Below, piece by piece: positions 3,367 through 36,502 of a stretch of 64,000 nt of DNA (positions within the stretch are counted from its first letter, which is position 1; the number at the start of each line of letters is the position of its first letter). Origin of the DNA: a virus. The stretch is taken from the IMG/VR virus record IMGVR_UViG_3300029374_000001, positions 160,001-224,000 of that record; one strand, written 5' to 3'. Position numbers and translations under genes: made by a program. The notes under the pieces are model-generated. The model made no database searches. It saw nothing but the letters and a program-made list of their open reading frames with translations, and had not been told where the DNA came from.

Positions 3367-5136
3367 ATGCAGGAAAAAACAATTTCTTTAGATGATTTGA
3401 TTAAGAATCCGCAGACAACTGCTGAGGAAATCAAAGAAGAACCTGTAAAAGTAGAAGAGGTTAAACCGGAGACTGTTGTAGAAACAGACCCTGCTACTGA
3501 AGTACAGATAACTAAAGAAGAAGGGAAACCTATTATCTTAACACCTAAGATGGTAGGAACAAAAGCGTCTGCTGAAATGAAAACGGTTCATGCAGGAGAT
3601 ATCAAACCGTTTACAGAAGAAGTATCTGCTGCTAAGAAGTTTGAAGAAGAGATGTATGATAGAATTGATGAGAATATCGAACGTACCAAGAAAGAAATGA
3701 TGCACGATAGAATTCAGCCATATATTGATAAATGTAAAGAATTGGCAGAACAAGCAGAATTTAATGGACAAATTGAAGCCAGAAGTATGAATGATATGAT
3801 TAATCCTAATGCGACCACTAAACAAGCAGAATCTGAACTTGGAGAAGGAGATATTACCAATATTCGTCCAGAAGCTAAGTCGGTAGAATCTGATAAGAAG
3901 ATTGAAGAAAAAGTGTCAGATTCTTTAGATGCTATTAAAGAATTGGATGTAAATGAAGATGATTTTTCTTCTATAGAAGATGCAGATATTAATGCGGATG
4001 AAGATTTAGAAAAAGAAGTAAAAACAGATGAAGATAAAAAGGAAGAAGAAAAGATTACTTTCGATAAGTTTAAATCTTTCCAGAAAGTAGTTAAGAAGAC
4101 AATTGATCCTACGGAATCTATTGATTTGACTGGATTTACTATGTCTGGGACTCCTTTGAATATCAATACGGCTATTGGATATGTAGCTAAGACAGATAAA
4201 TCTTTTACAGAATCTCAGTCTGTTCCTCTTTTTAATACAGGACGTCTGATTCATTTCACCCCATTGACCGGTTCTGATATTGTTAAACTTTCTTCTGAAA
4301 GTTATAATTCTCAATTAGATCATCTGAAGAAAGTATTTGCTACAATGTATGCTCATGATGTAACTCCAAATAAACCAGCATCGTTTACTGCATGGATGAA
4401 ATCTATCGATGCAGGAGATTTAGATCAATTGTACTTTGGGTTATATAAGGCAACATTTAGTGGATCTAACTATATTGGCTATCAGAAACCTGAATCAAAA
4501 GAGTTTATGATGGTTAAATGCAATATGGAAGACATGTATGAGTTTGATGAATCTGCTAAAGACGAAGATAAGAAACGTTTTGAAGATATCATTAAACATG
4601 GAGAAGTAGAAGATAACTTTGCTTCTAGAAAAGAAGATTATATTTTATCTGATAACTATGCTATTACTCTTCGTCCAAGATCCCTCTATAACTTAATTGA
4701 ATTAGAATACTTGGATGATGAATTTAGACAGAAGTATGAATCCGTTTATATTATCTCCAGTTACATTGATCGGGCATTCTTTATTGATAAGAAACGTAAA
4801 TTACTTCGTCCGATTGATTTCAAAGCAGATAAGAATTCTGTAGTTAAATCAATTAAGAATAAGTGTCTGGTTATATATAAGATGATTTCTTCTATTACTC
4901 CAGATAACTATTCTATGTTTAACGGTAAACTCTCTTACTTTACTTATAGAGAAGTGGCAGCAAACAATTTGATCAAGTATCATATTCCTGCACAAGAATT
5001 TGAAGATGAATATATTGAAGGGCCGCAGAAGGGGACTAAGTTTATGAATCATATTGATGCAGAAGCAATGTCTCCCTATCAGTTGCTTTTTACACGTCAT
5101 CAATTGGCAATGCAGAGCACCTGGCGAATCGACTAA
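3367..5136 (+). CDS. virion/baseplate-associated hypothetical protein with acidic E/K-rich N-terminal low-complexity region (589 aa)
   Basis: Strong RBS aaggagg; follows gp25-like gene in same operon. Confidence 0.5.
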   Translation: MQEKTISLDDLIKNPQTTAEEIKEEPVKVEEVKPETVVETDPATEVQITKEEGKPIILTPKMVGTKASAEMKTVHAGDIKPFTEEVSAAKKFEEEMYDRIDENIERTKKEMMHDRIQPYIDKCKELAEQAEFNGQIEARSMNDMINPNATTKQAESELGEGDITNIRPEAKSVESDKKIEEKVSDSLDAIKELDVNEDDFSSIEDADINADEDLEKEVKTDEDKKEEEKITFDKFKSFQKVVKKTIDPTESIDLTGFTMSGTPLNINTAIGYVAKTDKSFTESQSVPLFNTGRLIHFTPLTGSDIVKLSSESYNSQLDHLKKVFATMYAHDVTPNKPASFTAWMKSIDAGDLDQLYFGLYKATFSGSNYIGYQKPESKEFMMVKCNMEDMYEFDESAKDEDKKRFEDIIKHGEVEDNFASRKEDYILSDNYAITLRPRSLYNLIELEYLDDEFRQKYESVYIISSYIDRAFFIDKKRKLLRPIDFKADKNSVVKSIKNKCLVIYKMISSITPDNYSMFNGKLSYFTYREVAANNLIKYHIPAQEFEDEYIEGPQKGTKFMNHIDAEAMSPYQLLFTRHQLAMQSTWRID

Positions 5137-5195
5137 TTCATCTGCAGTCGGCTTTTAGAAGAGGATTTGACATTATCTCTGCTAAAGACCAGCCA

Positions 5196-5507
5196 ATGGG
5201 ATTTATCCATGCTCTGTACTATTATCAAGTACAGAAATCCATAGATGATGCTAAGAAAGAAAAAGAGAAGAAACAAGAAGAAGAACGATCTAAACGTCCT
5301 ATCACAAATTATAAGATAGGAAATCAGAATAGATCTGATGTAGATATGAAGTATGGACATATCTCAGATCATTCTCCCTCTTCTATAATAGAACAAAGAA
5401 GAATGAGAGAAGAATCTAGACGGAATCAGAATTCTTCGAGTACAACCTCCTCAAATGTCAGTGATGTAGATATGGAAGAAGCTTTTGAAGATGTAATGGG
5501 AGGGTAA
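5196..5507 (+). CDS. hypothetical protein (103 aa), S/R-rich C-terminus
   Basis: ORF in operon. Confidence 0.3.
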   Translation: MGFIHALYYYQVQKSIDDAKKEKEKKQEEERSKRPITNYKIGNQNRSDVDMKYGHISDHSPSSIIEQRRMREESRRNQNSSSTTSSNVSDVDMEEAFEDVMGG

Positions 5508-5509
5508 TT

Positions 5510-5824
5510 ATGACATTACCACAATTTGCCAAGATGTTAGACATTTCTGGCAAACCAGAAAACATTGGTAATCACTTTGAATCCTGTGTTGCTGTATATA
5601 GAATACTCAATCAGTATTTCAGTCAGGATGAAATTGAGATTGCTATTGAATCTATGGAAGCTTCCAAAGAGATATTTAAAATTAAGATTATTCCAGTTAA
5701 AAATATAGAAGACTTATTGAAGCTGTATGAGAATATACAATTAGAACTATTCTCCACCCAGGTTCATATATCTTCTAAGATTACAAAAAAGAAAGAGCTT
5801 ATTATTAAAACAATTAAAAAATAA
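5510..5824 (+). CDS. hypothetical protein (104 aa)
   Basis: ORF starting 2 nt after previous stop; followed by terminator. Confidence 0.35.
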   Translation: MTLPQFAKMLDISGKPENIGNHFESCVAVYRILNQYFSQDEIEIAIESMEASKEIFKIKIIPVKNIEDLLKLYENIQLELFSTQVHISSKITKKKELIIKTIKK

Positions 5825-5856
5825 AAGAGACTCATACGAGTCTCTTTTATTTTCTT
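5823..5856 (+). terminator. rho-independent terminator (agagactcatacgagtctct + T-tract)
   Basis: Perfect GC-clamped hairpin followed by tttattttcttt. Confidence 0.7.
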
Positions 5857-5869
5857 TGACCGATATGGA

Positions 5870-6247
5870 TTATGAATTCATTGCTTTCAAATCCATCTTC
5901 AATCTCGTATTCTCGAGGTCGAGTTCGCCGAGCTTTTCGTTAAGTTCGGTATTTTCCTTATCGAGCTTTTCAACATCTCTATCAAGTCCCTCGATATCGT
6001 CTCGAAGTAAACGATTTTTCTCTCTGAGCTGGTTGATCTCATTGGCCATCTTTCTACTTTGGTCATTCCGCACTTCCTGGTCGTTAATCATTTCACGGAA
6101 TGTGGTAACAATGTTCATTACATCCTTACCATTTTGAACCATTTCTTCGACAGTCATTTCGACGTTAACTTCATCTAATTTGAAGTCAAGATTAACGCCC
6201 TCGATATTCTTGCCGTTGATTGTAAAACCTTTTAATGTGAATTTCAT
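5870..6247 (-). CDS. hypothetical coiled-coil protein (125 aa)
   Basis: RBS aaaggaggactacacatcATG; heptad-like E/K/L-rich C-terminal half. Confidence 0.5.
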   Translation of the reverse strand: MKFTLKGFTINGKNIEGVNLDFKLDEVNVEMTVEEMVQNGKDVMNIVTTFREMINDQEVRNDQSRKMANEINQLREKNRLLRDDIEGLDRDVEKLDKENTELNEKLGELDLENTRLKMDLKAMNS

Positions 6248-6349
6248 GATGTGTAGTCCTCCTTTTGTTTGACCAAATTTTTCCAGGTATCATAGAAAAT
6301 TTGATAACTGGCGATATGCATTTCATGATTATACATATCCTTTTCTCAC

Positions 6350-6387
6350 CTATATATTATATAATTTAGAAAAAGTTAGATTACAAA
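6350..6387 (-). promoter_or_regulatory. conserved sigma-A-like phage promoter
   Basis: ctatatattatataa-N12-tagattacaaa; faces gene 5870..6247. Confidence 0.5.
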
Positions 6388-6452
6388 ATTGGATTTTTGA
6401 TGAATTCTACATTTAGGTAATGTAAGGTTAGTATATAAAGGAGGTCTTATCG

Positions 6453-7968
6453 TTGGCTGAACAAAAAGATTTTTTGTCTATTAAGCCGTTGGATATAGAT
6501 AAATTTATTAAAGTAAATGAGCTCAAACAGATTACAAATCCGATCTTTTTTGTTTCTAATAATTCCCCCACTCCGGATGGGTTATTATCAAACGAAATCT
6601 TTGGGATTACGATGCAAGATCGGGCTAATACATTTGCTTATATCAATTTGGGTGGGCCTCATTTTATCCATCCATTGTTCTATTCTATATGGCAGAAGAT
6701 AGATCGTAACTTACCTCAGTGTGTACATGGTACTACATACTTCAAATTAACAAAAGAAGGATATTTAGAACCATCTTCAGAAGAAGATGGTGGAGAAACC
6801 GGATTAAAATTCTTATATAAGAATAGAAACAATATTCATTTCAGACCGGGATCTAATTCTATAGATCGAAAGAACAATATTAAGTTCTTAGAACGTTTTA
6901 GAGAATTTATGTTTATTCAGAATTATCCAGTTATACCAGCATACTACAGAGATGTATCTACACAGGATAGACATGTAGGAGTTGGAGATATCAATATGCT
7001 GTATGCTTCTCTATTACGTACAGCTAATTCTTTAAAAGAATATGACGAATATGGATTAACATTGTATGATTCTGTTATAGGACGTATTCAAGATATTTTA
7101 CTAAATATTTATGAATATTTTACTAAAGGTAATATCAATGGTGTTTCTACTGGATCTGGTATGGCAGGTAAATTTGGTGTTATACGTTCTGCCGTACAAT
7201 CTAAGACAGCAGATTATTCTTCTAGATTGGTTATTACAGCTCCAAATCTAAAAGTAGAAAATAGAGACGATATGTTGACAGATCTAGATCATGCATCTGT
7301 TCCATTAGCATCTGTTATTGTCAATTATTATCCATATATTTTAACATATGTAAGAAACTTTTTCTCTAATGAATATACATCGCAACCCGTTAGAGATTAT
7401 ATTATTAGAGATAAAAATGGTAAGCCAATTAAGACTGTAAAGGTTAAATTAAAAGATTTCAGAATATCTTTTTCTGATGATATTCTAAGAGAAGAATTAG
7501 ATCGTTTTGTACATGGTGTAGCAGATCGATTTAGACCTATTAGAATGCCCACGGAAGATAGAAAATATCCAGATGTTGGTATATGGTTTAGAGGCAATCT
7601 AATACCACCAGAAAAGATTAGAGATGAAACAGGATTCTTAACTCCTGATGAGAAGATGCCTATTTTAGAACGTCCTATGACGTGGTGTGATTTATTATAT
7701 TTAGCAGCAATGGAAGTTATTCAAGATAAGATGATATTGATTACCAGATATCCAATAGATAGCTGTTATAATCAATTTCCGTGTGGTATCAATGTAAGTT
7801 CGACTGTTAAAACAGAACCTATGTTAGTTAACGGTAAATTATATAAACATTACCCATATATTCGTAAAGAACTTATTGGAACGAATACAACAGACAAATT
7901 TATAGATACTCTAAATATGAGCAACCTCTATTTGTCCTCCGTGGGAGGAGACTATAGATCCGATCCTT
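6453..7968 (+). CDS. multisubunit RNA polymerase beta-prime subunit, N-terminal fragment, exon 1 (annotated ORF reads through into intron to 7985)
   Basis: Matches bacterial beta-prime landmarks: DGLLSNEIFG (cf DGLFCARIFGP), AYINLGGPHFIHPLF (cf GHIELASPTAHIWF), VIPAYYRDV...GDINMLYASLLRTANSLK (cf VLPPDLRP...SDLNDLYRRVINRNNRLK), KTADYSSRLVITAPNL (cf KRVDYSGRSVITVGP). TTG start with RBS aaaggaggt. Confidence 0.7.
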
Positions 7969-8321
7969 GCAAACTTAACATTTAAATATATGTTAGTATA
8001 TTTAAGCATGTTACATCCATTGTAGTCTTCTTTAACAAAAACCTGTTGAACTGCGGGAAAACGCATAAGAATATATAAACCAAGTTATGGTAGTAATACA
8101 CATAATGGCACTCAGTAATGATGAGTGGTATGGTAAAATCTATATATTTGCACAATCCGCAACCAAGCATCCTATGCTTAGTAGGATGAAGGCTCACAGA
8201 CTATCGAAAAGCAATATTAAATAATATTGAACCGAGTAGAGTAGGGAAACCGAAGTGGCAGGATATACTTTTAAGTATATATGATATAGTCGAAAGTTTG
8301 TAATTATTATTACAAAATATG
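7969..8321 (+). ncRNA. group I self-splicing intron (ORF-less) inside RNAP beta-prime catalytic motif
   Basis: Conserved group I core elements readable: P ctgcgggaaaacgc (~8049), Q caatccgcaacc (~8153), R cacagactatcg (~8196), S gatatagtcgaa (~8283). R/S can form P7 (gacta/tagtc). In-frame stop immediately inside. Putative omega-G at 8321. Joining exon 1 and exon 2 gives YRSDP|DGDQVTV, aligning to YNADFDGDQMAV. Exact 5' splice site uncertain (7966-7985). Confidence 0.7.
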
Positions 8322-8528
8322 GATGGAGACCAAGTTACCGTTAAACCTGTATATTCTATTGAAGCCAATGCTGAACTTAGAGAACAATTAAATTCTAAGA
8401 GACATTATATCACGTTAGCTGGTATGAATATTGCTCAGACTACTAATGAGGGTGTTATGGCTCTATATAGTTTAACTATGAATGGTACTGAACTGGGACA
8501 AATTAAATTTAATGATCCTGAATTTTAA
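8322..8528 (+). CDS. RNAP beta-prime N-terminal fragment, exon 2 (DGDQVTV...)
   Basis: Frame continues the catalytic DxDGD motif after intron; no credible RBS of its own. Confidence 0.6.
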   Translation, partial: DGDQVTVKPVYSIEANAELREQLNSKRHYITLAGMNIAQTTNEGVMALYSLTMNGTELGQIKFNDPEF

Positions 8529-8539
8529 TTAGATTATAT

Positions 8540-8573
8540 ATTATATATCCGAGTACTATATAGTACTCGGATA
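8540..8573. promoter_or_regulatory. 34-nt perfect palindrome atatatccgagtactatatagtactcggatatat (terminator/operator)
   Basis: Perfect inverted repeat between beta-prime exon 2 and HEG gene. Confidence 0.5.
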
Positions 8574-8599
8574 TATAATAGTAAGAAAGAAGGATTGTT

Positions 8600-9487
8600 A
8601 TGTATACTAGGTCAGAAACACTAATAGGAAAAACAATTGGAAAATATAAAATATTAGGTATTATTGGAAAATCAAAAAATGGCCAAACTTTGTTTAGTAC
8701 ACAATGCTTAAAATGTGGATATGTAGATACGACTAATGGTATGACGGCTGCAAGTTTGCGCGCATTATCTTTGAAAAAGACATCTAAATGTCAGCATATT
8801 CATGTTCCAGATGAATATTATATTGGTAAAGTTATAGGAAAATATAAAATTATTGAAGTGATTAAAGATCATTCAAGACCTAATCGTAAACTATATGTAA
8901 CTCAATGTCTTAAATGCGGATACATTGAGAAAAAAGGTATGACCTTATCGACTATTAATAAAGCAATAAATACTCAAAAATGCGAGCATGTGTACTGGAA
9001 ATCTCAAAGATTACGTCATATATTCAAAGGTATAAAACGTAGATGCTATAAAGAAGGCAGACGAGATAATAAATGGTATTATGATAAAGGAATTAGAGTG
9101 TGCGATGAATGGTTAAAAGAACCATGGAAATTTCAAGACTGGGCATTTTCTCATGGATATGAAGATGATTTATCCATAGATAGAATAGATCCTGATAAAG
9201 ATTATTCCCCAGAAAATTGTAGATGGATTACCATGAGTGATAATAATAGATTCAAATCTAGTGCTCATATTATTGAAATAGATGGTATTAAAAATACCAT
9301 ATTAGGTTGGGGTCTATGCATCGGGTATACTCATTCTACTTTATATGAAAAAATGAGAAATTATATAATTAATCATCCAGGTTCTACAATCAAAGATGGA
9401 GAAGATTATGTTAAAGAATTCATTTGTTCTAAGCTTAAGAAGCGTCCTTTAATAGAAGCAGTTATGTTTAAAAATAGATATCGTTAA
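8600..9487 (+). CDS. free-standing HNH-family homing endonuclease with duplicated N-terminal Cys-containing modules
   Basis: C-terminal LSIDRIDPDKDYSPENCRWITMSDNNRFK matches phage HNH (HNH_3-type) signature; two ~60-aa repeats IGK(T/V)IGKYKI...TQCLKCGY; RBS gaaagaaggattgttATG. Confidence 0.6.
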   Translation: MYTRSETLIGKTIGKYKILGIIGKSKNGQTLFSTQCLKCGYVDTTNGMTAASLRALSLKKTSKCQHIHVPDEYYIGKVIGKYKIIEVIKDHSRPNRKLYVTQCLKCGYIEKKGMTLSTINKAINTQKCEHVYWKSQRLRHIFKGIKRRCYKEGRRDNKWYYDKGIRVCDEWLKEPWKFQDWAFSHGYEDDLSIDRIDPDKDYSPENCRWITMSDNNRFKSSAHIIEIDGIKNTILGWGLCIGYTHSTLYEKMRNYIINHPGSTIKDGEDYVKEFICSKLKKRPLIEAVMFKNRYR

Positions 9488-9499
9488 TACTCATAAAAA

Positions 9500-9527
9500 T
9501 ACTCAGAGCACATATGTGCTCTGAGTA
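9500..9527 (+). terminator. hairpin terminator tactcagagcacatatgtgctctgagta
   Basis: 28-nt perfect palindrome after HEG stop, followed by T-rich tract. Confidence 0.6.
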
Positions 9528-9528
9528 C

Positions 9529-9566
9529 TATGTAATCTATATTTTTTTGAATTATATATTATATAC
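9529..9566 (+). promoter_or_regulatory. conserved sigma-A-like phage promoter upstream of Transposase_20-domain gene
   Basis: tatgtaatcta-N12-ttatatattatatac, same consensus as other 6 copies. Confidence 0.5.
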
Positions 9567-9651
9567 ATGAAAGAGCTTACTATTTTAATAGCTCTATTAG
9601 TAGTTACATTTCGTTTAAAGTTAAGTCGAAAACAAAAGGAGGACTACAAAA

Positions 9652-18207: not shown

Positions 18208-21200
18208 TTAGTTAATCATTGTAATCTTGAAGATTTCACTCTGGATGAAATCTCTGAACTTGACTTTGATTACAGCATAGAAAATCTTATTCAGTTCATA
18301 CTGTTCATCTTCAGCATATTCTACACCAATTTCTTTGAACTGGCTCTTATAGCGGTTGAGAACAGCTTCTACGTCAGCTTTATATCTGAGCAGATCCTGA
18401 CCATCGAGGAATGTATAACGATTCTTCGGGCACTGTTTACGGATTTCATGAATAATCTTCTGAACAAGCAGAACATTGTTAATCCAGGACAGCTGAGTAT
18501 ATTCAGTCTGAGATGTATATTCAGTATCCAGTGTAGGAATACCAGAATAGTAAGCGATGTAGTTCAGACGTTCATTATCAAACCATTCTTTCTGGTTGTA
18601 TGTCTGAGCATTTTCATCAGTCTGCGGAGTACGTTTCGGCGAGAAGTTAATGGTACCAGGAATGATATCATTTTCAAAGGTAACTCCATAAGCCTGTCCG
18701 CAGAACGGACGGTTAACGCCATTCAGATAATGACCAACGAAACGTGTTACCAGGTTGTACATAATGGTTACGTTAACCTGTTTTCTGTAATACGGTTCAA
18801 TGACATCATAGCTATTGATGTAGTTGGCTACGAACTTATTCTTCTTATAAGTATCGTTAACAGCTTCAATTTCATTAAGTGTGGTCAGACCAAGTCCGAA
18901 ATCACGGAAGAAGAAGCAGTCTTCACGGAATGTAACCAATTCATGGATAGCATCTTTAATATCTCTCTTATAGTTGGCATCAAAGATGGCATCAATTCTT
19001 GTGTTGTCGAGATCATAGATATCGTCAGCGAAAGAACCATTGAATACTCTGAGAACCTGATTATCATAGAGAGACATGCCTGTAGAATCTCCAACAGAAT
19101 TAAGGATTTCCGGAAGAGCAATCGGATAATCACCAAATGCGCCGTTATCACCATTTTGGAGAAGAATACCATTTTCTACAGAGAGATTATCGCCAGCCGG
19201 ATCAATGCCTACAGCATTAGATACTTTACCGTAGCGATCGAAGGCAAACAGAATATCCATATGAGCTACTTCATTCTTAGTCAGTTTAGACTTTTCAGAA
19301 ACATCATCTACGAATTTATTCCATTCGCTTTCATAATATTTACAACGAATATTTCTGGAGTTCTGGTTAATAACCTGATCTACAGCTTTGTTCTTAGCAT
19401 TAGCAGCACTACCATCAGAGGATTCAACAATCAGATTGTCAAATGTGAAGTAATGAGTTTCAAGCTCTTTATTACCTTCCAATACTTTCATTACGTATTT
19501 AATATATCTAACCGGTCTACGAACAGATGTATCAGCATAAATACGAATCTTCTTATTAGAAATACCACGGCCTGTATCAGTCAGAGTGAAGAGAACATAG
19601 TTCTTTTCTCCGGTTTCCGGAACAACCAGTGTATCTTTAGTTTCTTCTACTGTAGCTACTACAGAGTTGAATACTTTATCAATATCATCTGTATTGTTAA
19701 TCTGTTCTGTCAGAGGAACAGCTTTCAAAGAATACTTGATCATAGCTGCATCAACTTTGATCGGTGTATTCGATATATCATTGGTCTTGGAGTCTGTGGT
19801 TTCTACCTGAACAGTTACACCAGGAGTTGTATCTACGCCAACTTCTGTACCAGTAATAGCCTGAGCCGCAGCATAATATTTGCCGCCATATACAACAAAC
19901 TTACCTACAGCATAGGCAGTGCCAGGAGCATAAGCAGGAACATTGATATCCCATACAATCTTATAGAGAGAAGTCTTTTCTACTTTAGCTTTGTAGTAAT
20001 GACTAGCTTCTTTAACTTTAGAACCTACAATATAGGTATCTACAGCAGCTTCGTTGTAGTTATCAATGGATTCCTGAACCTGTTTCTTAAGAGCTTTATT
20101 AGCAACCTTAGCTTTATAGAACTTGGTTTCAAACTTAACAACTGTTCCAACTGTATAAGTGCTAATATTAGCTACAGAATATTCCGGAACATGTTCATCA
20201 GGTACATCAATCATCAAAGGTTTATGAGCAACTTTAGCCTTATAGAACTTTGTGCCAGATTTAACAACTTTGCCTACACCATAGGTCGGTACATCAGTAT
20301 CGGAATATGCAGGAATAGTTGTATCCGGAACTTCTTTCATCAAAGGTTTATGAGCAACTTTAGCCTTATAGAACTTTGTGCCAGATTTAACGATTGTATT
20401 TACAGTATAAGTAGATACATTAGCTACAGAATATTCCGGAACGTTATCGTCAGGAACTTCTTTCATCAAAGGTTTATGAGCAACTTTAGCTTTGTAATAA
20501 GTAATTACAGCACCTTTAGTTACTTTAACCTTAGCGCCTACTGCATAAGTAGAAACAGCAGAGTCAGCATATTCTGTATAAGTGGAAGCATCAGACGGAG
20601 GCGTTACATTGTCACCAGTCTTTTCCCAAGAATCAGTATCAAGAACTTTAATCTTAGGCTGTGGTACTTCCTGCCAAGAAGCTGTATCTACAACTTCTAC
20701 CATAGGCTGAGAAATTTCTTCCCAAGACAGAGCGTCAACTGCTTTTACAGTCGGCTGAGGAACTTCATCCCAGGAGTCAGTATCAAATACTTCAATCATT
20801 TCGGGAGTATAATCCTCCCAAGCATCTGTATTGATATCTGTGGTAATTCTCTTAGTCTTGTAAGCATCAGGAATATCTGCTTCTTCTTTTACAGCCCAGT
20901 AAGTCTGATCAACTTCTGTTTTGTAATAGAGAGGTTTACCTTTAGCATTGGTTTTCTGAATTTTATCAGCTCTAACTGTAGCGATAAGAGCCAAGTTAGC
21001 CAGTTTAGAATCTGGAGCAACAACACGCTTTGCATACTGTAAACCACCAGCATTAGCAATAGCCGCTGCCTGTACGAGAGCCTGGCCATGTTTGAAATAA
21101 TTGGGATTGTCTCCATATAGAGCAAAGAAATCTTCTCCTGAAAGTTCCTTCTGGAATTTTTCCGGTCCTTTATCAGAGGAGAATACTGTCATAAGCACTG

Positions 21201-24482: not shown

Positions 24483-25322
24483 TTACTCTCCTCTCATATG
24501 ACCCGAATATTCTCCGGTATCAAAATTTTGGAAATTCATATTTTTAGCAATTTCTTTTTGTATACGTTCTTCTGGATCTTCTCCAAAAGAAGTAAATACA
24601 GAATCAGGAACTCTGAACTTATTAGACTTACTCATTCCTTCCAATTCAGATACAGGAATCTGTGTAGCTTTAGAATATGCTTCTCGTACTGCTTTATTTT
24701 GCAGCATATCCATAAGCATTTGTTGTTCATTAGCTCTTTGTTTTTGCACAAATTCATTGAACATCATGCCCATACCCATCTTCATCATCTTAAGCTGATC
24801 GTTCATTTGCTTAAGAGATTCAGATTGTTCTTCTGGAGGAAGTTTAAGTTCTTCTACAATTTCTGTATAGCGTTCTTCTAGTTCTCTACCAACAGAATCA
24901 TCTACAGAATCTTCTGTCTTAATAGTAGACTTATTAATACCAAAGTTTTCTTTTAGATTCTTTCCTTCATACCATACATAAAGAGCCATTAAGTAAGAGA
25001 ATACCAGATCGTCATGTGAATTGTCTGAGTGTTCCACTTTACCATTTCTCTTAACAACCATCTTTGATAATTCATCAAACATGACTGGAGAATATATTTT
25101 ATCTTTATGACGTTCCATACGTTCTCTTAATATCTCTATCAAGAGGTCTCGTACATCTTTGGATGAATCTAAACCATATACTTTTGTTCTTTGTTTACGA
25201 CGAATAGGTCTTCCCAAAGAATCAGAAGTTTCTTCTATAATACGATCTTTAATTTCGTAATATAAGTTTTCCTTAATACCACCAGGCTCTTTAAGCTTGG
25301 ATATTAACGATGCGCCAAAACC
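24483..25322 (-). CDS. terminase large subunit, exon 2 (C-terminal nuclease part incl. HDDLVFSYLMALYV)
   Basis: HDD motif = third acidic residue of terminase RNase H-like nuclease; frame open upstream only to a TGA at 25332-25334. Confidence 0.6.
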   Translation of the reverse strand, partial: GFGASLISKLKEPGGIKENLYYEIKDRIIEETSDSLGRPIRRKQRTKVYGLDSSKDVRDLLIEILRERMERHKDKIYSPVMFDELSKMVVKRNGKVEHSDNSHDDLVFSYLMALYVWYEGKNLKENFGINKSTIKTEDSVDDSVGRELEERYTEIVEELKLPPEEQSESLKQMNDQLKMMKMGMGMMFNEFVQKQRANEQQMLMDMLQNKAVREAYSKATQIPVSELEGMSKSNKFRVPDSVFTSFGEDPEERIQKEIAKNMNFQNFDTGEYSGHMRGE

Positions 25323-25619
25323 CAATCTGTTTCATTATAGACGCAACTCTATAACGCTTGGTCAATTCCAATGCACCTTCCATTACAGAACGTGTGCAGA
25401 TCATTTGTCATCCCTCTATAATTATTTATAGTAGGGCCAGGATTTTTCTTCCACCATATGCTTGTGGTTCTACTCTCCCGTCAGGAGATGATCGTTGAAC
25501 GTCTCATCTTAATTAAGATGCTTTCGCTGCTAAACAGAGGAGATTACTTTTGCTCCTCTTTCAAAGCAATTAACCCTGTTGAAATATATAGATTACTCTA
25601 TATACTGAGATTGCTGTTA
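25323..25619 (-). ncRNA. putative ORF-less group I intron splitting the terminase large subunit gene
   Basis: ~300-nt non-coding, locally GC-richer gap separates the first nuclease strand (IGVDVSGGYKRDYTAISVID...IERNGVA*) from the rest of the nuclease domain; contains GUUCAACGA (group I R-element-like) and AAUUGC (P-like) on the sense strand; in-frame stop right after exon 1; boundaries approximate. Confidence 0.5.
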
Positions 25620-27104
25620 AGCTACTCCATTTCTTTCGATATTAACTACCGCATTGGGCATCATTGTTTTAACCAACCATATTAATACTCTGGCTAAGTC
25701 AGGAATACTCATATAGTTACATTTGATTCCGCCAATAAATTTAGTAGTGGCAGAATCTATAACAGATATAGCCGTATAGTCTCGTTTATATCCGCCAGAT
25801 ACGTCAACTCCGATAATAGGAGGATTAATTGGAATACCGGTTACACTAACCGGAACCGTATCATAAATATTAAACGAATATTTGTTAAGAATAAGTAGTG
25901 AACGAATTGGTTCGTGTAGCATACCTCTAAGAGCTTCCAAATCATCTTGACTGAATGGGGAGTTCTCAGGAGTATCAATCCACTCCAACAAAATTTCTCG
26001 ACGTATGTCTACCATTTTCCAGAGCATACTCTTACACTGATTATAGAACCATTCTTCACCAAGTCCAAGCTGTCTATAGTTATACTTAATATATACAAAG
26101 ACAGAGTTCATATTGCTGGAAACAATATTCATAATCTGCTCATATGTCAGATCATACCATCTCTCAGAGAATGGTGTAGCATTGTTAATCATATCAAAAG
26201 CAAACTGGCCTTCATGAGAAGATAGTATACCTGCTGTTGTTGTGATTGTAATGCCATGAGGAACTCCTGCTGCTTTTGCATTTTCAAACGCTTTGGTCAA
26301 TGCAGGCATAGAGTTAATCATAATGGTTTGGTTATAAGCAGTAAATGCCCATTCGTCCGCCCACCATAACGTAACAGTCTGACCACGTAATAAGTTAGCC
26401 GCTGCTGTTTCATTACGAGCACCTGGTACGGTACGAATAATATTATGGTTAATCGGATGCTGGATATTGGTAACTGTAGACGGAAGTCTTTTCTTCTTAC
26501 CATTGACCATAGAAAATTCCTGGGACAATTGTAAGTATGTTGGCAATAGATCTCGTATCGCTTTAAATGATTCCAGGTTTCGTTTAGAGTCCTGGTTATT
26601 TTTATTCATGAAGATAATATTAGAGTTCGTTGAAGCAAAATTGTAAATATATAAATATCTTACATTGGCCGCCATCGTCTTACCAATCTGACGAGGCATT
26701 TCAAAGAAGAGATTTAAATTATACATTGCACAGAAGTTATATGCTAAGTTACCTCTGTTTAACTGATATGGTACACCTTTAGGATGACCGTTGGCTGTAA
26801 CTCTAACTACTTCTCTTAAGAAATACCAATAATTAATTTGTACTTCTTTAAGAATCTTAATCTTCATTTGCGTACTTAGCATAGGATCATATGGATCTAC
26901 TCCTGCTAAGTCAGGATCAAATAAAGCTAACATGAATCTATTATTTTTTATATCTTGAGACTTCAAAAAATAATGCATCTCTAAGAAAGACTTATTTGAT
27001 GTAGACATCTGATAATAAATCTGTCTGTTTGCTGGTCGAGGTTGTTGTAATGCTGGTACTGGAGTTTCATCAGGAAATAAAGCACTTCCTTGTAATGATT
27101 CCAA
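25620..27104 (-). CDS. terminase large subunit, exon 1 (ATPase domain + start of nuclease domain)
   Basis: C-terminal PIIGVDVSGGYKRDYTAISVIDS (first catalytic Asp strand of terminase nuclease) then ...VVNIERNGVA; large-terminase size and position next to structural genes. Confidence 0.6.
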
Positions 27105-32543: not shown

Positions 32544-33713
32544 TTAGAATTCTGGATCTACTGTAATGGTTTTGGTAAATTTGCCTTTTTCCGTTTTTAC
32601 TGTATCTCCAGTAAGTTCACTAAAGAAATCATCTTTAGCCAATCTGACATCTTCTGTAGATTTCTTACTACGAAGCGTATCAAATCCCGTAGAGTCTGTA
32701 ACAAATTCTTTAGAGAAGAAATCATCTTTAGATTTATCTACAGAATCAGAATTCTTAACAAATTCTTCATAAGCATTCTCAATATCTTCAATAGGCATTT
32801 TTAATCCGCTAATGATAAACTGAAGATAGTTGTGATCATGAAGTTTCTGAATATGAGAGAATGCTTCGAAGGGAAGACCAAATCTTTCTTTCAGAACTTC
32901 ATTATTATAGTCTACATAATCTGCTTCTTTATCTGAGATATTCAGAATAGTTCCTCTACGTTTACAGGTAGGTTCTACATTTAATGATTTGGAATCATCT
33001 ATAGCTTCAATCAATTTGGTATTATAAGAATCTACATTCTTTACTTTTCCCAAATCTACGTCTTCTATAACCATGAATCCAGGGGTGTTTACGAGCTTCA
33101 ATAAATCGGATTCGTCGATATTTTGACTTGACTCGGTAATAGTACCACCCAACAGTATTCTGATGCTCTGACAGAACTTTTTGTTTGCCATCTGTTCTGC
33201 TTTAGTTCTATTTCCATGAGCTTCATCTAAGAACTTAGCATTGGAAATAGATTCTACTGTATAATCGGAATCCAGCTCTTTAAACAAATCTACTGTATTC
33301 TTGATTCCTCTGACATCAGAGTTGAATCCGGTAAATACAAAAATATGAACATGGGTCTTATATACAGAACTAATATATTTAGCTAAGATTGGAGTAGCTC
33401 CGGATCCAGTACCACCTTCTGCTGATGTGACAATAATAGTCATGGCATCGTCTGGATCTGCCGGATAATCAAAATCTCCAGATTTTAAATTAGAAATCAT
33501 AATATCTCTGGCCACTGCTCGTTCTTTAGCACAGCCTTTATAATCTCCAACCAGTTCTACAGCATTTTCTCTATATTCGGTCGGAATATCTTTGAGTGTA
33601 GTATTGATTAGAATAATGGAGCTTGCTAATTCAGGAATCTCTTTCATCAATTCGATACCTGCTTTGTTGGCTCCTCCACCTAAGCAAAGTATTTTTGCTT
33701 TCAGTAACATCAA
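32544..33713 (-). CDS. tubulin/FtsZ-superfamily GTPase (PhuZ/TubZ-like) with acidic C-terminal tail
   Basis: T1 loop KILCLGGGANKAGIEL (cf FtsZ GVGGGGGNA) and T4 signature TSAEGGTGSGATPILAK (cf GGGTGSG/GGGTGTG); C-terminal duplicated KDDFFS(K/E) motif. Confidence 0.7.
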   Translation of the reverse strand: MMLLKAKILCLGGGANKAGIELMKEIPELASSIILINTTLKDIPTEYRENAVELVGDYKGCAKERAVARDIMISNLKSGDFDYPADPDDAMTIIVTSAEGGTGSGATPILAKYISSVYKTHVHIFVFTGFNSDVRGIKNTVDLFKELDSDYTVESISNAKFLDEAHGNRTKAEQMANKKFCQSIRILLGGTITESSQNIDESDLLKLVNTPGFMVIEDVDLGKVKNVDSYNTKLIEAIDDSKSLNVEPTCKRRGTILNISDKEADYVDYNNEVLKERFGLPFEAFSHIQKLHDHNYLQFIISGLKMPIEDIENAYEEFVKNSDSVDKSKDDFFSKEFVTDSTGFDTLRSKKSTEDVRLAKDDFFSELTGDTVKTEKGKFTKTITVDPEF

Positions 33714-35746: not shown

Positions 35747-36502
35747 TTAGCTTTCTCTATGAATCCTATTTTCTGTTCTCTTATCTACTGTATGTGGTAA
35801 ATAGTATCCTGTCATAATCAAATTGCTGGCTATACCAGCTCCAATCAAATAAGCATTGAATGTATTACGAGCAATAGAGTCTTGTTTAGAAACTTCTACA
35901 TCTTTTAAGGACACCATATTCTTTTCTGAAATGGTAGCATAAAAAGCATCTTTTGCTCTCATAGCATCTGCTCTATAAGTTGAAAACTCTCTCATTGTAT
36001 TGGGCAATCCCATTACAGCTAAGCATTCCATCTCTCTATCAGACATATTTCCATTCTTATCCTTATTGATCAGTCTACCATTCTTCATATTTCGTTCATC
36101 AATATTGATGGACATAGAGTTCTTCTTAGCTAAGAACTGCTTCATTTTCTTTATAGGAACATAGACAACCATAGCATCATAGTTAGTTTTAACTGGTCTG
36201 CCTTTATTGTCTGTGTATAAGAATGGCATATATAGTTTTTCCATTAGTGGTACATGAATGGTGTCTAAAGCTTTAGTAATCTGATCCATCTTTGGTTCGA
36301 TTTCAAATGTTCTCATTTGAAACTTCAATGGAAATTCTTGCTTAAAATACTCATAGAATTGATCATTGGTCATGCCTTTGAATTTATTCATATACCAGGT
36401 TTTATTCTGTTCTGTGGGGTCTAAAATATCCATTACTTTATAGATTAAGAGTTCTACTTCTTTACGTTGTTTGGATGTAATTGCCATATTAGCACCTCTC
36501 AA
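35747..36502 (-). CDS. hypothetical protein (251 aa)
   Basis: ORF. Confidence 0.45.
   Translation of the reverse strand: MRGANMAITSKQRKEVELLIYKVMDILDPTEQNKTWYMNKFKGMTNDQFYEYFKQEFPLKFQMRTFEIEPKMDQITKALDTIHVPLMEKLYMPFLYTDNKGRPVKTNYDAMVVYVPIKKMKQFLAKKNSMSINIDERNMKNGRLINKDKNGNMSDREMECLAVMGLPNTMREFSTYRADAMRAKDAFYATISEKNMVSLKDVEVSKQDSIARNTFNAYLIGAGIASNLIMTGYYLPHTVDKRTENRIHRES

Follow-up and report, generated by a model that had tools for sequence, protein, structure and literature searches.

The stretch of DNA analysed here (64,000 nt, positions 160,001 to 224,000 of the IMG/VR virus record IMGVR_UViG_3300029374_000001; hereafter the window) is part of an uncultured jumbo phage and has a GC content of 33%. 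Positions 6453..8528 of the window are very probably one gene, which encodes the N-terminal beta-prime-like subunit of a jumbo-phage multisubunit RNA polymerase and carries a group I intron inside the codons of the catalytic DYDGD motif (Table 1). The evidence consists of the continuity of the gene across the interruption, an exactly placed junction, the conservation and covariation of the ribozyme fold, the purifying selection on exon 2, and the presence or absence of the intron in related genomes. The subunit carries the DPBB-A domain with the Mg-binding DxDGD loop, which has been described in N-beta-prime for both jumbo-phage enzymes (PMC7598289). A preliminary description of this region, made from the letters of the DNA, had already proposed a beta-prime fragment with an intron-split active site; it placed the exon 1 junction differently.

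Two open reading frames (ORFs) are present in the same frame, as noted in that description. ORF 6453..7985 (510 amino acids, TTG start) and ORF 8319..8528 (69 amino acids) are separated by approximately 330 nt containing stop codons. The first ORF is homologous to the N-terminal part of beta-prime and matches positions 9-489 of the 539 positions of PHROG 2986 ("RNA polymerase beta subunit"; E 1.5e-69), and the second matches positions 486-535 of the same family (E 1.3e-5). Since the two ORFs match consecutive parts of one profile, share one frame, and are separated by a stop-containing gap, they represent an interrupted gene. In PDB searches, the protein aligned with the beta-prime subunit of the non-virion RNA polymerase (nvRNAP) of phage AR9, with the cyanobacterial gamma subunit, and with bacterial beta-prime. 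The alignments to AR9 nvRNAP beta-prime and cyanobacterial gamma include the DGxxSxxIFG, DLNxLY, and KxxDYSxRxVI regions. The landmark regions listed in the preliminary description were recovered in these PDB alignments, whereas the strings quoted for them are a bacterial consensus and not literal matches. The DYDGD motif is restored only once 7956..8321 is removed, and in the spliced protein it aligns with DYDGD of AR9 nvRNAP beta-prime and with NADFDGD of cyanobacterial gamma. The C-terminus of the spliced protein is located 65 residues past DYDGD, a split that it has in common with cyanobacterial gamma. Pfam RNA_pol_Rpb1_1 matched the window protein with an E-value of 0.03 only; PF04997 is precomputed on many of the homologues. 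Genes annotated as RNA polymerase beta-prime were matched in 250 phage records using tblastn.

The homologue counts given here refer to the best 120 of 1263 homologues (protein clusters). The polypeptide is uninterrupted across the junction point in 106 of these 120, with a contiguous DYDGD or DFDGD (DYDGD in 101 by pattern search), and the uninterrupted homologues listed through the motif have a length of 544-589 amino acids; among them, polypeptides of 561-569 amino acids continue past the end of exon 1 without a break. The closest of them (P0001, 96% identity) comprises 569 amino acids, which is the length of the spliced model. Twelve of the 120 clusters are truncated just after ...GDY. With the collinear matches to PHROG 2986, the 106 uninterrupted clusters, and an intron-less close relative, the earlier proposal that both ORFs belong as exons to a single catalytic beta-prime subunit was borne out.

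After the removal of 7956..8321, the gene encodes a protein of 569 amino acids (...LSSVGGDY/DGDQVTVKP..., the slash marking the junction) with the junction peptide GGDYDGDQVTVK. The 3' end of the intron, the omega-G at 8321, is the one given previously. The 5' splice site is predicted to lie after U7955, 12 nt upstream of the site proposed earlier, because of the P1/P10 pairing, the continuity of the homologues, and the gapless alignment to the intron-less allele of L003, a 252-kb metagenomic scaffold (ENA ERZ28566528). The sequence GGAGACUAU (7947-7955) is perfectly paired with GUAGUCUUC (8022-8030), including the canonical U.G at the splice site, and a single guide sequence (8017-8030) aligns both exons via P1 and P10. 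The spliced window aligns with the L003 allele without a gap across 7955/8322 (GACTAT/GATGGAGAC against GATTACGATGGAGAC). The first ORF does not end just before the motif, as had been stated, but includes DY plus nine intron codons. This read-through tail is considered non-coding because the homologues pass from GGDY directly to DGDQV and the truncated homologues diverge right after DY.

The junction of the preliminary description (5' splice site after 7967, resulting in ...YRSDP/DGDQV, a 354-nt intron, and a DPDGD motif) also keeps the frame and lets exon 1 end on U, yet it is extremely improbable. It leads to 573 amino acids in comparison with 569 in the 96% identical intron-less homologue, and RSDP between DY and DGD occurs in no homologue (101/120 DYDGD by pattern, 106/120 uninterrupted). 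A guide sequence complementary to GAUCCU was not found in the intron by eye, whereas the 9-bp P1 and the adjoining 5-bp P10 fit 7955/8322 and covary. The exon junction therefore reads GGDY/DGDQV in our model.

The inserted sequence was recognized as a group I intron by Rfam. RF00028 matched 8002..8315 over the full model (1-253) with 40.7 bits and an E-value of 5.6e-9 in a search of 601 nt (7850..8450). The P, Q, R, and S elements are located where the preliminary description had placed them and align with P4, P4', P7, and P7' of the model. The Rfam match and the covariation described below support its claim that a group I intron interrupts DxDGD. The intron of the related locus L140 was matched by RF00028 with a similar score (39.6 bits, E 8e-9). 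The architecture is IA-like, P7.1 and P7.2 being inserted between P7 and P3'. Phage group IA introns such as those in T4 td, nrdB, and sunY are small and self-splicing, reside in conserved codons of essential genes, and display P7.1/P7.2 extensions. In contrast to these, the intron of the window is located in a different host gene, its P1 loop is extended by a long insertion, and it contains no ORF. Inside 7956..8321, no ORF of more than 45 amino acids was detected, and a homing endonuclease gene is absent from the intron. An intein was ruled out, as the insert has in-frame stop codons and folds as RNA.

Sequences related to this intron were collected from the truncated homologues. DNA was fetched for seven of the twelve truncated clusters, and two further intron-bearing loci were found in IMG/VR. 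In total, twelve loci besides the window bear the intron (extra contigs counted), and both splice sites and the intron length are defined in ten of them. The insertion position is identical in every locus, after GAY-UAU and before GAY-GGN-GAY. The exon-final U precedes every insertion, the final G is present in every defined intron, and the ten defined introns are 268-897 nt long. The exact 14-mer GGTATGGTAAAATC from the intron core was useless for collecting the family, being found in at least 120 apparently unrelated stretches of viral contigs.

A whole-intron MAFFT alignment misplaced the 3' half (P7.2, P3', and P8). Hence, the strands of ten helices were aligned via conserved-motif anchors, without making use of complementarity, which resulted in a gap-free alignment of nine distinct sequences. 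Standard pairs were found in 99.0% of the 495 cells (nine sequences, ten helices), and in 24 of the 55 base pairs both partners had changed. In 500 shuffles, none of five covariation measures was reached. When the partners were slid by 1-3 columns, pairing fell to 32-50% of the cells and double changes to 0-3 pairs. The helices P3, P5a, P5b, P5c, P6, and P6a contain 1-5 compensatory pairs each, P4 and P7 are invariant, and P8 and P9, which are outside the scored helices, form hairpins in all family members. The U.G at the 5' splice site is present in all nine sequences. Two pairs of P1 covary with synonymous third positions of exon 1, one in a Gly codon (A-U, U-A, C-G) and one in an Asp codon (C-G, U-A), and a compensatory change from U-A to C-G in L136 and L137 links P10 to the Asp codon of exon 2 in the same manner. 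The covariation of P1 and P10 with exon codons ties the ribozyme to exactly these splice sites.

Several observations weigh against this interpretation. The 40.7 bits of the RF00028 match, which was obtained in the Rfam comparison recommended in the preliminary description, are below the gathering cut-off of 50. A search of the whole window with Rfam, at the gathering score and at E ≤ 0.01, gave no match (lost by speed filters), and the intron match was also lost when eight related loci were searched jointly. The P1 loop contains an unusual insertion of ~60 nt, which is missing from distant family members. The covariation alignment was built around the structural model and is thus not independent of it.

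The codon differences in exon 2 are mainly synonymous: 16 against 2 non-synonymous in comparison with the intron-less L003, and 13 against 1 in comparison with L008 (IMG/VR 3300045988_088320). Exon 2 is kept under purifying selection although it is a downstream fragment without a ribosome-binding site, which indicates that it is joined to exon 1. The low RF00028 score and the extra ~60 nt in the P1 loop would be in accordance with a dead gene, in which the insertion inactivated the subunit, the ribozyme no longer splices, and the ORFs are decaying remnants. This is highly unlikely given the codon ratios (16:2 and 13:1), and because every core helix is intact, with compensatory changes across lineages, and at least five diverged lineages have an intron at this site while keeping both exons intact. 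In addition, no second beta-prime N homologue was detected among the 33 ORFs of the window that were scanned (30 of them with at least 150 amino acids), a scan of the window and not of the rest of the genome.

A split at the protein level is very improbable as well. Here, the ORFs of 510 and 69 amino acids would be translated separately, the latter from the ATG at 8319, and would assemble non-covalently. Jumbo-phage beta and beta-prime are naturally divided among several polypeptides (PMC7598289), and the second ORF does start with ATG. However, a Shine-Dalgarno sequence before 8319 is absent, and the ATG is not conserved, since other introns of the family end with UUG or AUG followed by the Asp codon. 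Such a split would put the three Mg-binding aspartates on two chains and would leave no role for a conserved, covarying ribozyme with P1 and P10 pairings to both exons.

For the single interrupted gene, the following splicing mechanism is proposed. The primary transcript would fold, and the guide CCAUU-GUAGUCUUC (8017-8030) would pair with the 9 nt at the end of exon 1 (P1, with U7955.G) and the 5 nt at the start of exon 2 (P10). Exogenous guanosine would attack after U7955, and the freed 3'-OH of exon 1 would then attack after omega-G8321. The ligated mRNA, with the expected junction sequence ...GGAGACUAU/GAUGGAGACC..., would be read as GAC UAU/GAU GGA GAC and translated into the 569-amino-acid protein. 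Splicing is presumably autocatalytic and efficient.

Table 1. Features of the intron-containing RNA polymerase gene and the adjacent HNH cassette (window coordinates).
Feature	Position	Strand	Remarks
Ribosome-binding site AAAGGAGG	6439-6446	+	upstream of ORF 6453..7985
Exon 1, RNA polymerase N-terminal beta-prime gene	6453..7955	+	codons 1-501, TTG start, ends ...LSSVGGDY
P1 5' strand, exon side, GGAGACUAU	7947-7955	+	U7955 in U.G wobble at the 5' splice site
Group I intron	7956..8321	+	366 nt
Read-through tail of ORF 6453..7985	7956..7985	+	RSDPCKLNI and stop; nine intron codons, not coding
L1 insertion	7956-8016		hairpin 7982-7990/7997-8005
P10 intron strand CCAUU	8017-8021		pairs with GAUGG 8322-8326, the first 5 nt of exon 2
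Internal guide sequence (P1 3' strand) GUAGUCUUC	8022-8030		9 bp with GGAGACUAU
P3	8042-8047/8257-8262		
P4	8052-8057/8156-8161		
P element UGCGGGAAA	8052-8060		aligns with P4 of RF00028
P5/P5a	8063-8077/8141-8151		
P5b	8084-8089/8101-8106		
P5c	8109-8114/8122-8127		
Q element AAUCCGCAAC	8154-8163		aligns with P4' of RF00028
P6	8163-8164/8191-8192		
P6a	8168-8174/8182-8188		
R element CACAGACUAUCG	8195-8206		aligns with P7 of RF00028
P7	8199-8204/8286-8291		
P7.1	8212-8218/8223-8229		
P7.2 region	8232-8254		
P8	8263-8270/8273-8280		
S element GAUAUAGUCG	8283-8292		aligns with P7' of RF00028
P9	8297-8304/8309-8316		
Omega-G	8321		last intron base
Exon 2	8322..8528	+	codons 502-569 plus stop, DGDQVTVKPV...NDPEF
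Free-standing HNH-family endonuclease cassette	~8526..9487	+	~960 nt; exactly at the polymerase stop codon; ends from the L003 alignment
Hairpin within the HNH cassette	8545-8578		
HNH ORF	8600..9487	+	295 amino acids; PHROG 3377 (E 8e-36) and PHROG 374 (E 1.5e-35), "HNH endonuclease"

The best matches in cultured phages are the beta-prime N genes (~500 amino acids) of Listeria phage LPJP1, of Staphylococcus jumbo phages, and of AR9/PBS1-like Bacillus phages, with 30-31% identity over 96-99% of the length. PhiKZ-like phages match the window protein at 25-26%, and no match of the locus to cultured phages was obtained with megablast. The orthologue of phage Madawaska is annotated as "viral RNA polymerase beta-prime subunit, N-terminal", and the AR9 non-virion beta-prime in the PDB is matched only marginally, at E 6e-5 by the window protein and at E 9e-7 by the orthologue of the AR9-like phage Goe21. 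Judged by these matches, the gene most likely encodes a virion-type N-beta-prime; a point against this call is that the distinction between virion and non-virion enzyme is an annotation transfer at about 30% identity.

The window further encodes a tail sheath, a terminase, a DnaB-like helicase, a topoisomerase II subunit, SbcCD-like proteins, a tubulin-like protein, and virion proteins. The assignment to a jumbo phage of the phiKZ or AR9 kind with its own multisubunit RNA polymerase, also put forward in the preliminary description, is supported. The tubulin/PhuZ-like ORF 32544..33713 (minus strand; PHROG 4733 E 5e-8; Pfam Tubulin E 3e-6, below the cut-off) hints at a phiKZ-like intracellular organization in an AT-rich uncultured phage. 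ORF 35747..36502 (minus strand, 251 amino acids) matched PHROG 3233 ("RNA polymerase beta subunit", E 2e-32) and PHROG 23439 ("hydrolase", E 2e-23), and nothing was found in Pfam for this ORF. In AR9-like phages, an HD nuclease domain is fused to the virion C-beta subunit (PMC7598289); ORF 35747..36502 may be the counterpart of this domain, here as a separate gene.

An intron-split arrangement is not unusual for a gene of this type. Intron-split polymerase subunit genes have been reported for AR9, MarsHill, Madawaska, and Machias (10.1101/2020.12.14.422802), and the gene in the window is a further example of this documented habit in jumbo-phage polymerase genes. The Madawaska orthologue (GenBank MW349129, CDS CPT_Madawaska_113; about 31% identity) is annotated as a two-exon join and is interrupted in the same catalytic motif. 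Its exon 1 ends with ...GADFDG and its exon 2 starts with DMISIRS..., preceded by GAUAUAGUC...AAAUG (read from MW349129). The insertion there is located 6 nt further 3' (ADFDG/D, after the Gly codon), the intron is larger (about 1.5 kb, L001:5339-6830) and contains a homing endonuclease ORF, and the junction was predicted by protein alignment only. Rfam gave no match on the Madawaska intron; its S element and terminal G suggest that it is group I-like.

According to the summaries in 10.1101/2020.12.14.422802 and PMC7598289, AR9 possesses two multisubunit polymerases and several intron-split subunit genes, including a beta-prime N-terminal gene, and the mature mRNAs were determined experimentally. 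AR9 resembles the phage of the window in being a jumbo phage with an intron-split beta-prime N-terminal gene; however, the split gene named in 10.1101/2020.12.14.422802 is the non-virion one. In Goe21, the orthologue of the window gene is uninterrupted. In phage PhiPA3, gp210 is associated with a putative group I intron and an HNH endonuclease in the virion beta subunit gene gp211/209, and the enzyme nicks the intron-less allele of the competitor PhiKZ; both nicking and competitive advantage were determined experimentally (PMC11620839). As in the window, the intron directly follows acidic residues that are conserved in the polymerase subunit (two aspartates in PhiPA3). In contrast to the window, beta and not beta-prime is affected and the endonuclease is encoded inside the intron.

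The metagenomic homologue P0031 is truncated after DYDGDQV, a third insertion site. The three sites, DY (window), DFDG (Madawaska), and DYDGDQV (P0031), are located within about 21 nt of the DxDGD codons, and the codons of the catalytic loop are an insertion hot spot.

The intron is an optional element among the close relatives of the window. L003 is 94-95% identical to 3874..15202 of the window, and its polymerase gene is uninterrupted. L008 and L009 (IMG/VR 7000000238_000018) share the intron with the window, and it is absent from L003, L004, L006, L007, and L010 (88-96% protein identity). A free-standing cassette with an HNH-family endonuclease gene is positioned 204 nt downstream of the intron (Table 1). 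Homologues of its 295-amino-acid ORF were found in 534 phage records by tblastn, several of them annotated as HNH endonuclease; Pfam and NCBIfam identified no HNH family in this ORF, and the HNH label comes from the PHROGs and the tblastn annotations only. The five genomes without the intron also lack the HNH cassette, and both elements are present in L008, the closest relative of the window. L009 has the intron, and its sequence ends before the position of the cassette. As relatives with 94-95% identity lack both, the intron and the HNH cassette appear, from these alignments, to be recent mobile insertions. The 50 nt 5' of the insertion site have an identity of 52% to L003 and L007, in comparison with about 90% elsewhere in the gene, and the first 100 nt of exon 2 have an identity of 86-88% to the same two. 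The diverged flank resembles a tract that was co-converted from a more distantly related donor.

Whether the two insertions belong together is a separate matter. For the possibility that they are unrelated, with the intron now immobile or moved by recombination only and their joint presence in the window and L008 due to common ancestry, we see about an even chance. The HNH gene is not located beside the distant intron-plus loci, L136 has a different ORF inside P8 that is dissimilar to the window HNH, and the co-occurrence count is just 2 against 5. On the other hand, the two elements are only 204 nt apart and are both missing from every intron-less close relative, and the sequence that separates and flanks them has diverged beyond the background, which would be expected if one conversion tract had brought both.

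Alternatively, the intron and the HNH gene might form one collaborative homing unit, which we regard as a tentative and rather doubtful proposal. The HNH protein would cut or nick the DYDGD-coding site of intron-less relatives, the intron would protect its own genome, and co-infection would lead to spread by gene conversion, with the polymerase gene of the competitor being crippled as by PhiPA3 gp210. That the HNH protein cuts intron-less alleles and in this way spreads the entire segment is a conjecture. By analogy with F-CphI and psbA or with T4 mobE, a trans-acting role of the HNH gene is plausible. In cyanophage S-PM2, an ORF-less psbA intron is located beside the free-standing F-CphI (PMC6083498), and in T4, mobE is adjacent to the nrdB intron, which holds a defunct I-TevIII gene (PMC2790892). 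In these cases, as in the window, an intron without its own working endonuclease gene adjoins a homing endonuclease gene that is free-standing, and each of the two is an optional element. The arrangement in the window differs in having been seen in two closely related genomes only and in the putative nature of the HNH target. Two points weigh against a link between HNH gene and intron: it is derived from two intron-plus genomes, which are mutually closest relatives, and the distant intron-plus loci L131, L134, and L140 have no neighboring HNH gene. If the two did form a collaborative homing unit, the catalytic-site codons of the virion polymerase would be a recurrent battleground among uncultured human-associated jumbo phages.

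A different arrangement is found in a sister pair of distant loci. L136:4477-5373 and L137:4477-4753 have the same intron with and without an ORF of 190 amino acids (weak NUMOD4) in the P8 loop, and the pair shows that an intron-encoded endonuclease has been gained or lost at the DY/DGD site. The HNH protein of the window and the ORF in the L136 intron share no similarity. The absence of the HNH gene beside the distant introns and the position of the L136 ORF inside P8 indicate that the endonuclease association is variable. The different arrangements (no endonuclease, inside P8, or free-standing downstream) provide a compact natural series for the association of introns and endonucleases and possibly for phage-phage competition.

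The useful results are the exact junction, an intron family supported by covariation and missed by default Rfam, and the paired presence or absence of the intron and the HNH gene. The finding leaves the knowledge of phage transcription unchanged. It is of value for annotation, as gene callers divide this essential polymerase subunit into an ORF of 510 amino acids with a false tail and an orphan ORF of 69 amino acids, and in public databases, no fewer than 12 of the 120 nearest protein clusters are mis-split gene calls of the same kind.

Right after the HNH cassette, ORF 9652..10527 (plus strand, 291 amino acids) matched NCBIfam NF052498 ("TIGR-Tas system RNA-guided endonuclease") with an E-value of 4.8e-53 and 180 bits (cut-off 100). 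Downstream of it, long ORFs are absent for about 2.2 kb (10590..12750), in which units with a period of ~36 nt contain alternating GTATCA/GTAACA and GAATCA motifs. This stretch resembles a long TIGR array, carried here by a jumbo phage. The TIGR-Tas class has been described before (PMC12385481), and both the ORF and the periodic stretch are about 95-97% conserved in L003 and L007.

Two further observations were made in other parts of the window. The ORF of the terminase large subunit (25617..27104, minus strand) matches ATPase-side profile positions only, and the next ORF (24483..25325, minus strand) has no family. The two may be another split gene; a search for a second intron between them gave no Rfam match in the 290-nt gap. 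The plus-strand ORFs 18448..21042 (864 amino acids) and 17331..18185 (284 amino acids) are rich in I, S, F, and N and overlie, in antisense orientation, minus-strand genes for a tail-sheath-like protein and a virion protein. They are most likely non-coding shadow frames.

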